Shown here: one piece after another, positions 43,877 to 64,000 of the stretch | Layout: each line of letters begins with the position of its first letter | Numbering within the stretch: the first letter of the stretch is position 1 | NCBI GenBank assembly: GCA_035995165.1 | Contig: DASYKU010000065.1 | Coordinates: forward strand, 1,633 to 65,632 | Reading direction: 5' to 3' | DNA: 64,000 bases | Origin: Mycobacteriales bacterium | GTDB taxonomy: Bacteria > Actinomycetota > Actinomycetes > Mycobacteriales > CADCTP01 | Program-made: the position numbers and the translations under genes | Notes under the pieces: model-generated | Database searches by the model: none | What the model was told of the DNA's origin: nothing | Seen by the model: the letters and a program-made list of their open reading frames with translations, nothing else

Positions 43877-44824
43877 TCAGGCCCGGACGGTCTCGGGGAT
43901 CGGCGCGGCGTCGGCCATCGCGACCGCCACCTTCCGGGGTCCCGTGTACGGCTCGCGGCCGTGCGCGGTGAGCATGTTGTCGACGACGACGACGTCGTCC
44001 GGGTCGTAGTCGAACCGGGTGGACGCCGAGCGGTACGCCGCCCGCAGGTGCTCGGCGACCTCGTCGCCGATCCGGCCGCCGTCGCCGTAGTAGCTGCTCG
44101 CCGGCAGGGCGGCCTCCCCGTACATCTCCAGCAGGCCCTGCCGGGTCTCGGTCGGCAGGGTGGAGGGGTGGAAGACCGTGGCGTGGTTGAACCACACCTC
44201 CTCCCCCGTGACCGGGTGCCGGTGGATCGCGTCCCGGACGGCCGTGGTCCGCAGCACGTCGCGCTCCAGCCACTCGGCCACGATCCCCTGCCGGCGGCAG
44301 TAGTCCGCCACCTCGCCGCGGTCCTCGGTGCCGAAGACCTCCTGCCAGCGCAGGCCGAGCTCGGGGTGGAAGGTACGGACGACCGACCAGCGCCGCTGCC
44401 GGAACTCCTCGCGGACGTCCGGATCGATGGCGCGCAGCACGGCCCGGGTGTCGGCCAGCGGGGTGGCGCCCCCGGTGGCCGGCCTCCGTACGCACCAGAA
44501 CCACACGTGCGCCGGCCAGCTGCGCTGGTAGGAGTTCTCGTTGTGCAGGAAGATCTCCTGTTCCGCCGGGTACTCGGTGGAGGTGTAGACCCGGCCGCTG
44601 ATCTCGCTGCGCGGTGAGGACCGCTCGGAGTAGGCCAGCGGCTCGCCGGACAAGGCCCGGACCGCGGCGGCGAAGCCGTCCACACCGCCCACGTCGCCGC
44701 CCCGGAACAGCAACGCGCCGTGCTCGAGCAGTTCCGCCCGCAGCCGCGCGCGCCCGGCTCCGGCCAGCTGTGCGAGTGCCCGCCCGTGCGCGGGGACGAG
44801 GAGGACGAGGGAGGTGTCGATCAT
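43877..44824 (-). CDS. TauD/TfdA-family Fe(II)/2-oxoglutarate dioxygenase (SyrP/AsnO-like amino-acid beta-hydroxylase candidate)
   Basis: 315 aa. The facial triad is HNE (His codon 44543-44545, Glu codon 44537-44539) plus a distal His in NMLTAHGREPY. It is the last gene of the NRPS operon, with an ATGA overlap to the TEII gene. Confidence 0.85.
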   Translation of the reverse strand: MIDTSLVLLVPAHGRALAQLAGAGRARLRAELLEHGALLFRGGDVGGVDGFAAAVRALSGEPLAYSERSSPRSEISGRVYTSTEYPAEQEIFLHNENSYQRSWPAHVWFWCVRRPATGGATPLADTRAVLRAIDPDVREEFRQRRWSVVRTFHPELGLRWQEVFGTEDRGEVADYCRRQGIVAEWLERDVLRTTAVRDAIHRHPVTGEEVWFNHATVFHPSTLPTETRQGLLEMYGEAALPASSYYGDGGRIGDEVAEHLRAAYRSASTRFDYDPDDVVVVDNMLTAHGREPYTGPRKVAVAMADAAPIPETVRA

Positions 44825-45606
44825 GACCGCGGACCTTTCCGGAGTTGGTCGGCGAGCAGCTCGGGGAACCGGTCGCCGGTGAACGGATGGAAGTGCCCGC
44901 CGGGCAGCATCCGGAGGGTGAGTCCCCGGGCGGCATACTCGGACCAGGGCTCCAGGACGGCGCGCGGCACGGCCTGGTCCTCGGTCCCACCGAGGACCAG
45001 CAGCGGAGCCCGCACCGGCGGGCGATCCAAGGGCCGGTAGGAGTCCATCAGCGCCATGTCGCCCCGCAGAGCGGGCAGGAACGCCGCCAGCAGCTCGGGC
45101 TGGTCGGCCAGGGTGTCCGGGATCCCGCCGTACGTCTCGTGCACCGTCCGCACGAACTCCGCGTCAGAGAGTCCCTCCAGCGCGGTACGCCCGTGGTCGA
45201 CCAGGTGCGGGGCCGAGGACGACGACACGATCAGCATGCTCGGCACGAGCCGGTAGCGGCGCCACAGCTCGCCCGCCAGCTCGTAGCCGACGATGCCGCC
45301 CATGCTGTGGCCGAGCAGCGCGAACGGGACGTCCAGGAACGGCAGCAGCGCCGAGGCCAGCGCGTCGACGAGCTCGTCCATCCTCGTCATCGGCGGCTCC
45401 CCGAGCCGGTTCTCCCGGCCGGGCGACTGGACCGGGCAGACGTCGACGGCCGGGGCCAGCGGGTCGATCCACCCGGCGAAGGCCGACGCGCCGCCGCCGA
45501 CGTGCGGCAGGCAGAACAGCCGCAGGTCGCTCCCGCCGGTGCCCAGCCCGTACGGCAGCCAGCGGCGGTAGCGCTCGCGCCTCGCGAGCACCGCCGTCGC
45601 GCTCAC
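44821..45606 (-). CDS. Type II (editing) thioesterase
   Basis: I trimmed track ORF 44821..45867 to the GTG at 45604-45606. It has [12 protein letters not shown], the nucleophile motif GHSMGG, and the C-terminal PGGHFH. There is a GTGA overlap with the megasynthase stop. Confidence 0.88.
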
Positions 45607-62800: not shown

Positions 62801-64000
62801 CAGCCGGACAGGTCGGTGTCCGGACCGGACAGCTCGCCGTACCGGTCGGCGTACACCGCCTGCCACTGCTCGATCTGCTCGTCCTCCCAGCCCGCCGCGC
62901 GACCGGCGTCGGTGTCGAGGACCACCGCGGCGGCCAGCCGCCGGCCGCGCCCGGGCTCCTCCCGGACCAGCACCGCGGCCTGCCGGACCGCCGGCTGCGC
63001 GGCGATCGCGACCTCCACCTCACCGAGCTCCACCCGGTGGCCGCGCAACTTCACCTGGGCATCGCGGCGGCCCAGGTACTCCAGCTCCCCACTGGGCAGC
63101 AGCCGCACCGAGTCGCCGGTCCGGTAGAGCCGGGCCCCCGGGCGGCCGCTGAACGGGTCCGGCACGAACCTCTCGGCGGTCGCACCCGGCCGGCGCCAGT
63201 ACCCGTACGACACCCCGGTGCCGCCGACGTGCAGCTCGCCCGGGACCCCCGAGGGCACCGGCTGCCCGGCGGCGTCGAGCACGTACAGCTCGGTGTTCTG
63301 GATCGGCCGCCCGATCGGCACCGGGCCGGTGCCCGGATCGCCGTCGCGGACCTCGTACGCGCTGCAGGCGACCGCGGTCTCGGTCGGGCCGTACTCGTTG
63401 ACGATCCGGGTCCGGCCGTCCCGCCACGGCGCCAGCGCCTCGGCGTGCAGCGCCTCCCCGCCGACCACCAGCCGCCGGGTCCACGGTGCGCTCCGGGTCC
63501 CGGCCGCACGCAGCGCCTCGAGGTGGGAGGGCGTGAGCTTGACCAGGCTCAGCTCCTCCGCCGGACCGGCACCGTCCCCACCGCCGGCGCTCTCCGCGAG
63601 CGCCTCGCCGGGGACGCCTGGCGCGGCGACGAGCACCCGCTGGCCGGCCAGCAGCGGTGCGAAGACGCTCGTCACGGTGAGATCGACGCTCAGCGAGGAG
63701 TGCACCGGCACGCCGCCGCCCTCGCCCAGCTCGTACGCCCCGGCCGCCCAGGTCAGGTAGTTCACCAGGTTCCGGTGGGAGAGCAGGACACCCTTCGGGC
63801 CGCCGGTCGAGCCGGAGGTGTACATGAGGTACGCGACCTGGTCCGAAGTGGACGGTCCGGGGTCACGGTCGGCACCGGCGGGCAGCGTGCCCGGGCTGAG
63901 CACCAGCACCCGGCCGGCGCCCGGATCGACCTTGTGCCGCAGCGCCTCGGTGGTGAGCAGCAGGCCGGCGCCGCTGTCGGCGAGCATCCCGGACAGCCGC
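59863..64000 (-). CDS. NRPS, 5' end outside the window: ...A (interrupted by a methyltransferase domain)-PCP-C
   Basis: The reading frame is open to the window edge, and the track 'start' at 63987 lies inside an A domain. Motifs are YLMYTSGSTGGPKGV, NEYGPTE and GRRDAQVKLRGHRVELGEVE (A8). The MT insertion follows, with GWTDSYTGAEIPAPEMAAWL and VLEIGCGTG (62677-62703). After it come LPAHMVP and PGGKLDR (A9/A10). The PCP Ser (LGGHSL) is at 61372-61374. The terminal C domain has LSSAQQRLWF and IHHVAFDGWS (His-His at 60781-60786). Confidence 0.9.
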   Translation of the reverse strand, partial: RLSGMLADSGAGLLLTTEALRHKVDPGAGRVLVLSPGTLPAGADRDPGPSTSDQVAYLMYTSGSTGGPKGVLLSHRNLVNYLTWAAGAYELGEGGGVPVHSSLSVDLTVTSVFAPLLAGQRVLVAAPGVPGEALAESAGGGDGAGPAEELSLVKLTPSHLEALRAAGTRSAPWTRRLVVGGEALHAEALAPWRDGRTRIVNEYGPTETAVACSAYEVRDGDPGTGPVPIGRPIQNTELYVLDAAGQPVPSGVPGELHVGGTGVSYGYWRRPGATAERFVPDPFSGRPGARLYRTGDSVRLLPSGELEYLGRRDAQVKLRGHRVELGEVEVAIAAQPAVRQAAVLVREEPGRGRRLAAAVVLDTDAGRAAGWEDEQIEQWQAVYADRYGELSGPDTDLSGWTDSYTGAEIPAPEMAAWLDGTAERIRRLHPRRVLEIGCGTGMVLARIAPACELYVATDFSAAALEHVRATKLAGDRDLADRVELRLAPAHKSLWRGDAVDTVVLNSVAQYFPSVDYLVRLISRAVGAIPGTGHVFLGDLRSLPLLELFHTSVELHRAARRAAAGERPTAGEVRALVRRAVEREEELCLDPRLFPRLRRRFPRITSVTVSPKPGTYRNELGDYRYDVTLGIGGRSPEPDGPPDQDGRGLAAGDLRAALAAGPGALVLRRVGNARLAAALAARAALRSADDRTPVEDVVSASAAGTALDSGEVAAIARDAGYVTEPSWLAGHPDGAVDVLLHRPDVATAPAGGLEPAGPSTVDTDLRPYANDPLWGRACAALLPGIEARLRDRLPAHMVPNHLVTVSGLPRTPGGKLDRTALAGLVDADLGPSEAEPGGPAGRPLTPTEERVAAIWRELLRREHVRPEHDFFALGGHSLLVFTLVFRLREAFGVDVPVRAPFEHRDLAGLAACVDALTGAGRGGGEQPARPALSRSDPYGPVPLSSAQQRLWFHDQLAPGGTDYSVPVYGRIAGDLDLPALRRALAEVVRRHHVLRTVFDATAGVPAQRVLPYAGVPVPVLDLGGLAPDRRPAAARSLAAAEYDRPFDLPRGPHLRARLLRLAGDEHVLLLTIHHVAFDGWSMGVLLRELATLYEAYAAGTKSPLAELPVQYGDYARWQRRLVEDGHLGEQLDAWVHRLAGVPELPPLPTDRPRPVRAAAGGRRLPVDVPPETVRAVRALARDEDATVFMVLLTALYGTLHRWSGRRDLVVGTDVANRSEPATERLIGFFVNQLVLRADLSGDPTWRELLHRVRRVSLDAYAGQDVPYDEVVRALNPRRGRDRSPLFTVKLVLDAPAAGTVRTAGIELSPYPVEVRTARFDLSLVLEQGGGPVTGFWEYDADLYDAATVSRLARDFVRCLDQLTREPDSRPGRVDTGGDR

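Follow-up and report, generated by a model that had tools for sequence, protein, structure and literature searches.

The stretch analysed here (hereafter the window) covers 64,000 nt of contig DASYKU010000065.1 from a Mycobacteriales bacterium. Its final third is a block of packed minus-strand genes encoding proteins of the polyketide synthase (PKS) type and the nonribosomal peptide synthetase (NRPS) type, which raises the question of what such an operon would make and in what order its proteins would act. The region 43877-64000 is filled by seven consecutive minus-strand open reading frames (ORFs), each with one terminal stop upon translation, numbered here G1 to G7 in the direction of transcription. 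We consider it probable (roughly 0.7) that they encode a functional-looking hybrid PKS-NRPS line whose product is a short peptide bearing a beta-amino acyl chain as its cap. The most likely subunit order, which we infer from domain content and from related loci, is G5, G1, G3, and the chain would then read beta-aminoacyl-X-(N-Me)Asn-(beta-OH)Asn.

How such a chain could be started is indicated by G5 (45603..53747), a hybrid initiation protein of 2714 aa that is identical (100%) to HEV7655224.1. Pfam resolved an acyl carrier protein (ACP, 53448-53699), a ketosynthase (KS, 52353-53438), an acyltransferase (AT, 51048-51890) and a second ACP (50529-50729), followed by a class-III aminotransferase (49011-50096) and by condensation (C, 47475-48803), adenylation (A, 45969-47417) and peptidyl carrier (PCP, ~45678-45890) domains. 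The aminotransferase match (Aminotran_3, E 9e-48) spans residues 1218-1579, with a PP-binding match (1007-1073) on one side and a Condensation match (1649-2091) on the other. A beta-aminotransferase PKS module had been described from the letters alone, and its KS (DTACSS, HGTGT, NIGH), AT (GHSLG and HAFH, the malonyl type), ACP and pyridoxal phosphate (PLP)-lysine motifs all proved intact. The C domain carries the catalytic motif HHVAADH. The carrier serine is present in all five visible carriers, three of which lie in G5 (residues 48/49 and 1036 in the PKS carriers).

These features are those of iturin/puwainaphycin-type initiation, namely a carrier-KS-AT-ACP series with a condensing KS (Cys-His-His) and an in-line class-III aminotransferase before the C domain. 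In MycA of the mycosubtilin/iturin systems and in PuwC/PuwD/PuwE of the puwainaphycin system, as predicted for G5, a carrier-bound fatty acyl chain undergoes one PKS extension and in-line transamination, with C-A-PCP in the same protein (PMC4219810). Initiation by a fatty acyl-AMP ligase (FAAL), a PKS and an aminotransferase is documented for puwainaphycin and mycosubtilin, and puwainaphycins also hold N-methyl-Asn (PMC4219810). However, these systems differ from the window in their Firmicute or cyanobacterial hosts, their hepta- and decapeptide products, their lack of a TauD/His-less C module and their low sequence identity. Moreover, the ligase is fused in MycA, and PuwE has an extra monooxygenase domain.

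The second subunit, G1, runs off the edge of the window, where 3′ 70% of the gene is visible (59863..64000). This portion is 100% identical to the last 1378 residues of HEV7655228.1 (P0121), a protein of 1965 aa with the architecture C-A(MT)-PCP-C, where MT is a methyltransferase. The start of G1 must therefore lie near 65760, ~1.76 kb past the window edge, and the operon is at least 21.9 kb long. This agrees with the preliminary description, which had proposed a hybrid operon of at least 20 kb continuing beyond the window. Besides the A domain, the parts within the window are an N-methyltransferase (~61600-62847), a PCP (61264-61458) and a C domain (59881-61182). Both C domains of the full-length protein have catalytic motifs, HHVAIDG and, in the C-terminal domain, HHVAFDG. 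The proposed interruption of the A domain by a methyltransferase was also confirmed. Matches to Methyltransf_12/25/11 fall at residues 427-545 of the fragment, between the AMP-binding match (1-268) and the A10 lysine region, within an insertion of ~420 aa that holds an S-adenosylmethionine-binding motif and an N-methyltransferase signature. The sequences concerned are VLEIGCGTG and NELGDYRY, which we take to be N-methyltransferase signatures.

Alignment to GrsA-PheA gave the A-domain codes DAWKCGMITK for G5, DLTKVGEVA-K for G1 and DLTKVGEVGK for G3. Those of G1 and G3 recur with hardly a letter changed in all relatives, including a Glu at position 322. By Stachelhaus codes we take Glu322 to mark the Asn type, as opposed to the His322 typical of Asp-activating A domains. 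The expectation of two Asx-like residues is thus matched by two A domains with Asn-type codes.

The terminal subunit, G3, consists of an N-terminal C-fold domain (57516..58826) and an A-PCP-TE remainder (55008..57515), in which the A domain lies at 56112-57515, the PCP at 55854-56024 and the thioesterase (TE, motif GWSMG) at 55053-55745. Pfam Condensation matches only residues 8-181 of G3, and weakly. A profile-profile alignment of residues 1-437 against canonical C domains covered 423 columns (hhalign probability 100%, E 3e-46); it was used instead of a single-sequence AlphaFold model of the domain, which was unusable at a mean pLDDT of 34. In place of HHxxxDG the domain has AHPLVAD, with proline for the catalytic second His. 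At the counterpart position Kutzneria has TTALVAD, Streptomyces has TTALAAD and two cyanobacterial loci have LPSLCAD. In 4/4 lineages examined the HH motif is lost from the C-fold domain that follows a TauD and kept, as HHxxxDG, in the C domain that precedes it; condensation would therefore fall to the C domain at the C-terminus of G1. The preliminary description called the G3 domain degenerate and C-like. Loss of the catalytic His stands, but status as a relic does not, given the full-length C-fold and its conservation after a TauD. We read the domain as a non-catalytic, 'interface'-type hydroxylase partner.

Its hydroxylases would be the stand-alone TauD/TfdA-type proteins, of the Fe(II)/2-oxoglutarate class, G2 (58823..59866, Pfam TauD E 1e-43) and G7 (43877..44824, E 2e-45), both of which had been recognised as TauD-type and retain the residues for iron binding. 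For G2, H124, H317 and R319 are invariant and E126 is found in 5/6 aligned sequences; in G7 the H-x-E...H...R pattern is conserved. The two are paralogues (40-44% identical), each with its own conserved position in relatives. G2 is 57-65% identical to TauDs that are fused to, or follow, G1 homologues. Proteins in which the G2 lineage is fused to the C-terminus of a G1 homologue are numerous in Streptomyces, Kutzneria, Micromonospora and Amycolatopsis, and these fusions tie G2 to G1 in function; in the window the start of G2 overlaps the stop of G1 (ATGA). The predicted reaction of G2 is beta-hydroxylation of the Asn bound to the G3 carrier. G7 is 61-66% identical to TauDs adjoining the MFS (major facilitator superfamily) gene in Streptomyces and Catenulispora loci. 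Since the G7 type occurs in Streptomyces clusters that share only the two Asn modules with the window, and is absent from the Kutzneria cluster, its target is probably the G1-bound Asn. The PDB neighbours of both proteins are of the At3g21360 type of TauD, with no other hydroxylase class at E<=1e-3, and NCBIfam models matched G2 and G7 only far below threshold.

With these parts the following route can be proposed. An acyl starter would be placed on the N-terminal ACP of G5 by a putative fatty acyl-AMP ligase, and extended by two carbons through the KS and the malonyl-type AT, acting with the second ACP. The in-line aminotransferase would convert the beta-keto thioester to a beta-amino thioester, and the C domain of G5 would join the beta-amino acyl group to residue X, selected by the code DAWKCGMITK. 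G1 would then add an Asn-type residue and N-methylate it, before its C-terminal C domain joins the chain to the Asn-type residue on G3. The carrier-bound G3 residue would be beta-hydroxylated by G2, positioned by the His-less domain, and a further carrier-bound residue, most likely the G1 Asn, would be hydroxylated by G7. The TE of G3 could release the chain hydrolytically or close it onto the beta-amine as a lactam. G6 (44821..45606), a predicted type II (editing) thioesterase (Pfam Thioesterase E 5e-39, motif GHSMG), would clear misprimed carriers, and G4 (53749..55011), a predicted MFS exporter, would export the product. The exporter had been anticipated as one embedded among the synthetase genes, and Pfam agrees (MFS_1/MFS_3 for G4). 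Homologues of G4 (40-50% identical) lie beside synthetase genes in Kutzneria, Nonomuraea, Streptomyces and Catenulispora loci.

Relatives were sought among GTDB species genomes and in a set of 5.8 billion proteins, and some of the loci found were mapped by domain and gene table. The closest GTDB species representatives are ~50-54% identical, with none above ~54%. Apart from the proteins of the metagenome-assembled genome (MAG) itself, relatives of G5 and G1 in the protein set are 46-50% identical. The closest clusters, all uncharacterised, are those of Kutzneria viridogrisea/albida, Nonomuraea deserti, Kitasatospora sp. NPDC006697 and Streptomyces sp. URMC 127. These share with the window the series ACP-KS-AT-ACP-aminotransferase-C-A-PCP (KS 63-68% and aminotransferase 60-64% identical), as well as C-A(N-MT, DLTKVGEVA)-PCP-C, a TauD, A(DLTKVGEVG)-PCP-TE and an adjacent MFS_3 exporter. 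They differ from it in having four amino-acid modules as against the three visible here, a FAAL within the cluster and an overall identity of only 46-50%. A P450 is present in Nonomuraea, and an MbtH gene, a TauD fused to the synthetase and a collinear order distinguish Kutzneria. Conversely, a G7-type TauD and a type II thioesterase are found in the window and in none of the loci of these closest relatives.

Gene order varies among the relatives. In Kutzneria viridogrisea an MFS_3 gene is followed by ACP-KS-AT-ACP-aminotransferase-C-A-PCP-C-A-PCP, MbtH, an ORF of 82 aa, the FAAL, C-A(MT)-PCP-C with the TauD fused, and finally the His-less C-A-PCP-TE, in collinear order. In Nonomuraea deserti the order is A-PCP, C-A(MT)-PCP-C, P450, MFS_3, a PKS-NRPS with an extra terminal C, FAAL, TauD and A-PCP-TE, which is non-collinear, as in the window. 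There the initiation-type G5 is encoded downstream of the TE-ending G3, as the preliminary description had noted, and given the variation among relatives this is unremarkable. The collinear Kutzneria arrangement of the same parts (PKS-NRPS, C-A(MT)-PCP-C-TauD, His-less C-A-PCP-TE) supports the order G5, G1, G3.

A closer inspection of many Streptomyces and Catenulispora loci reveals the same downstream parts in loci that have no PKS: a G7-type TauD, MFS, C-A-PCP, C-A(MT)-PCP-C, a G2-type TauD and the His-less C-A-PCP-TE. The loci of Streptomyces sp. NBC_00057, S. echinatus and S. rishiriensis, for example, hold the whole N-Me-Asn/hydroxy-Asn-TE cassette together with an MFS exporter. Both TauD lineages are shared with the window (G2-type 62-65% and G7-type 61-66% identical). 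However, there is no PKS/aminotransferase initiation within these 25-kb loci, which start instead with C-A-PCP of code DIFAFVGTF. Because the cassette is shared by loci with different starts, the N-Me-Asn/Asn-TE modules are, on present gene content, a conserved unit joined to differing initiation parts.

Several points nevertheless weigh against the proposed route, the first of which concern priming and substrates. Pfam detected no loading enzyme (FAAL) in 43877-64000, no MbtH gene is present in the visible part of the cluster, and the top 120 homologues retrieved with the Kutzneria FAAL as query included none from the 79-kb MAG contig. FAAL genes do lie within the Kutzneria and Nonomuraea clusters, and on the same contigs as the PKS-NRPS relatives in Micromonospora, Amycolatopsis and Kitasatospora; by analogy with these clusters the loader of the G5 starter is presumably a fatty acyl-AMP ligase. 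The G5 code DAWKCGMITK has no assignable substrate match. Moreover, the substrate calls depend upon Stachelhaus codes and a GrsA-PheA fragment, for which recovery of DAWTIAAICK was the only check made.

The third point of this kind is the number of modules. In both of the fully read relatives (Kutzneria and Nonomuraea, 2/2) there are four amino-acid modules rather than three, and the assembly line beyond the 5′ end of G1 may be longer than what is visible. Further modules upstream, as presumed in the preliminary description, are not needed, as the PCP at the end of G5 could pass the chain directly to the catalytic C domain with which G1 opens. A longer line, in which one or more NRPS modules encoded upstream of G1 act between G5 and G1 to give at least four amino acids, is nonetheless a serious competitor, if at less than even odds. 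The PKS-NRPS protein of Kutzneria holds two NRPS modules. That of Nonomuraea has the extra terminal C, and a separate A-PCP lies directly upstream of, and overlaps, its G1 homologue. In Streptomyces loci, likewise, the gene immediately upstream of the G1 homologue encodes C-A-PCP. G5 is also the shortest protein in its family (2714 aa as against 2994-4104 aa), and ~13 kb of the 79-kb contig would lie upstream of the G1 start if the window begins at the contig end. Against these stands the direct fit between the visible termini of G5 and G1.

A further point concerns the His-less domain. The G3 homologue of Nonomuraea deserti (locus L084, 22259-22979) is an A-PCP-TE protein with only ~240 N-terminal residues, in which no C-like similarity was detectable; a stand-alone TauD nevertheless precedes it. 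This lineage may have lost or shortened the domain, which may therefore be dispensable for hydroxylation. This apparent loss, together with the strong divergence of the counterparts (18-34% identity), would fit a decayed C domain that has no role, with the TauDs acting, as AsnO does, on amino acids that are still free and not yet loaded. We regard such an account as improbable. The counterparts keep their full length and many invariant positions across actinobacteria and cyanobacteria, and in all examined relatives that retain the domain it sits after a TauD and before an Asn-type A domain. Many relatives have the TauD and the synthetase in one protein, and the PDB neighbours of G2 and G7 at E<=1e-3 are confined to the At3g21360 type. 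In two cyanobacterial loci (L015 and L075, from Pelatocladus and Westiellopsis) the arrangement is PCP-C / TauD / His-less C-A(DLT[HK]IGEVG)-PCP, followed by KS-AT and not by a TE. The hydroxylation device is thus common to phyla and is not bound to a terminal module.

The preferred reading of the G3 domain, as a hydroxylase partner, places it close to the modules of beta-hydroxy-aspartate siderophore synthetases. The 'interface' domain class was reportedly defined by Reitz et al. in 2019. As in such modules, the window has a TauD beside a catalytic C domain and a His-less C-fold directly N-terminal to an A domain. However, the partner A domain of that class activates Asp, and the G3 code is of the Asn type by Stachelhaus codes, so the locus would work in the manner of an interface module without being counted among them. 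Characterised layouts of this kind include '...C-TauD-C-A_Asp-PCP...' in potashchelin (PMC7100376) and C / TauD / C-like-A-PCP in cyanochelin C (bioRxiv 10.64898/2026.07.24.740629). In potashchelin PtcB and its next subunit, in cyanochelin C CcsJK/CcsL and in cupriachelin, as here, a catalytic C domain and a fused or separate TauD are followed by a non-catalytic C-type domain before an Asx A domain; in cyanochelin C the His-less arrangement also lies in the terminal TE module, as in G3.

The likeness raises the possibility that the product is itself a metallophore of the beta-hydroxy-aspartate lipopeptide type (cupriachelin, potashchelin, cyanochelin), with the two Asx residues as alpha-hydroxy-carboxylate iron ligands and EntS-like export by the MFS protein. 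The C / TauD / His-less C-A-PCP order and the two TauD lineages are hallmarks of these synthetases, and G4 matches MFS_3 and, below cut-off, the EntS model. We consider this unlikely, if marginally less so than a decayed G3 domain. The EntS score of G4 is 115.8 bits against a curated cut-off of 324, and EntS (2e-33) comes behind TIGR00900 (4e-70) and Tap (2.5e-41) among the NCBIfam matches, all below curated cut-offs. Both A-domain codes carry Glu322, which we take as the Asn type, and not the His of the Asp-type siderophore modules, and this is so in all relatives. Finally, no siderophore uptake or regulation genes, reductases or hydroxamate/catechol pathways are visible in the cluster or its flank.

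No characterised product or cluster match was found among protein names and the searchable literature, a search that did not cover MIBiG. The literature surfaced no actinobacterial N-methyl-Asn product and no aminotransferase-PKS lipopeptide with hydroxy-Asn, and that on interface domains in Streptomyces and on rhodopeptin genes held no characterised equivalent. The impression that the cluster matches no characterised actinobacterial product is therefore upheld to this extent, the best relatives being 46-54% identical and without a product. A similar scaffold is that of the rhodopeptins of Rhodococcus sp., cyclic lipotetrapeptides of one lipophilic beta-amino acid and three alpha-amino acids, whose genes were unidentified as of 2017 (PMC9230156; PMC5550956). 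The predicted product resembles these in its size from the visible modules and in a producer of the same broad order, although the likeness is one of scaffold only. A basic residue (Lys/Orn) and a bulky neutral one are required for rhodopeptins, whereas the window codes point to Asn, Asn and the unassigned G5 residue, and methylation or hydroxylation of rhodopeptins is not reported.

Tentatively, and at somewhat less than even odds, the window cluster and its ~50%-identical relatives may form an unrecognised actinobacterial family, with the N-Me-Asn/hydroxy-Asn-TE cassette in common, in which the TauD/His-less C device has been recruited for carrier-bound Asn. In this MAG the cassette would be joined to a beta-amino acyl initiation module, and the scaffold would be a new and very small beta-amino lipotetrapeptide, 13-membered if cyclised. 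If so, the pairing of a hydroxylase with a non-catalytic C domain, which serves aspartate in siderophores, would be extended to asparagine. Were it expressed, the cluster would probably give a small lipopeptide that has not been described before, and the cassette points to a whole group of orphan clusters in Streptomyces, Kutzneria and Nonomuraea strains, which are cultivable and could stand in for the MAG. Even so, every component belongs to a described class and the cluster is an ordinary orphan from an uncultured actinobacterium; its enzymology is standard for NRPS/PKS clusters and current understanding is not overturned.

Whether the operon is intact could be judged from its layout. All junctions given in the preliminary description were reproduced by translation: on the minus strand, ATGA at 59863-59866, GTGA at 58823-58826, GTGA at 55008-55011, TGA-G-ATG with a 1-nt gap at 53748, GTGA at 45603-45606 and ATGA at 44821-44824. 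Coding bases make up 20,123/20,124 of 43877-64000, the sole non-coding base being 53748. Shine-Dalgarno-like purine runs are carried by the 3′ ends of the upstream genes at the junctions. The G+C content of the region is ~75-79%, and the G+C content at third codon positions (GC3, 0.89-0.95 across the operon ORFs) together with domain E-values of 1e-40 to 1e-93 shows that the operon pattern is not due to chance. Overlaps of 4 nt between stop and start are also the rule in related clusters, and so are no special property of this one. Structurally the earlier reading is supported on essentially every point, although gene overlaps, a flanking tRNA and non-collinear order are commonplace in NRPS/PKS clusters.

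A rival view, that the locus makes nothing because it is silent, defective or a chimera of faulty assembly, would fit a MAG source and the lack of loader and MbtH genes in the visible part, but is very improbable. The seven ORFs are uninterrupted, every catalytic motif checked is intact and cultured relatives have a parallel set of genes. G5 and G1 (HEV7655224.1 and HEV7655228.1) lie on one contig of 79,004 bp from 'MAG TPA: Mycobacteriales bacterium'. Identical sequence was independently assembled in a Joint Genome Institute (JGI) metagenome contig and a Logan contig, across the G1-G5 and G1-G3 junctions. On the 8.2-kb JGI contig an independent gene caller set the same boundaries for G2, G3 and G4 (347, 1272 and 420 aa). 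Exact matches to G2 came only from metagenome contigs of 8.2 kb and 5.2 kb, both of which end within G1. The same kind of query with G3 (V or M start), full-length G1 and G5 had no match, and a metagenome scan with the N-terminus of G1 brought up no identical contig.

Among distant relatives of G5, nine metagenomic proteins (P0093-P0099, P0105 and P0107; 40-43% identical, ~3900-4150 aa) have FAAL-type and TauD domains fused into the PKS-aminotransferase-NRPS polypeptide, which suggests in-line hydroxylation variants of the initiation module.

At its downstream end the operon is neighboured by a tRNA-Leu(GAG) gene (43561..43646, plus strand; ARAGORN, and Rfam RF00005 at 51.9 bits). The tRNA had been described as abutting the operon; the gene itself is confirmed, but it is convergent with G7 and separated from the G7 stop by a spacer of 230 bp (43647-43876), so that it is a neighbour and not strictly abutting. 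The spacer has an AT-richer patch at ~43690-43720. Neither a terminator nor a promoter consensus is present in it, and a repeat of the tRNA-Leu 3′ end, looked for as the mark of an integration site, was not found elsewhere in the window. ARAGORN also proposed a tRNA-Ala(CGC) at 60848-60928 (minus strand) inside G1. As Rfam at its gathering threshold finds only the tRNA-Leu, this was rejected as a false positive in GC-rich coding DNA.

Beyond the tRNA lie genes for an M20 peptidase, a short-chain dehydrogenase/reductase, a zinc-dependent alcohol dehydrogenase and a RecD2-like helicase and a polysaccharide-type locus, with core genes (Pup ligase family, proteasomal ATPase, MetH) further out. These housekeeping-like genes make the tRNA-Leu the visible edge of the cluster. 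The polysaccharide-type genes at 30737-38030 (plus strand) comprise a family-2 glycosyltransferase, two large right-handed beta-helix (NosD-like) proteins and a UDP-glucose/GDP-mannose dehydrogenase. At 2014-6136 (minus strand) a Pup-ligase-family gene lies beside a proteasomal ATPase of the Mpa/ARC type, an actinobacterial pupylation-proteasome locus that marks the left part of the window as core chromosome. The cobalamin-dependent methionine synthase gene (MetH, 16089-20681, minus strand) has ~360 codons before its first domain in the maximal ORF, and its true start is therefore probably later.

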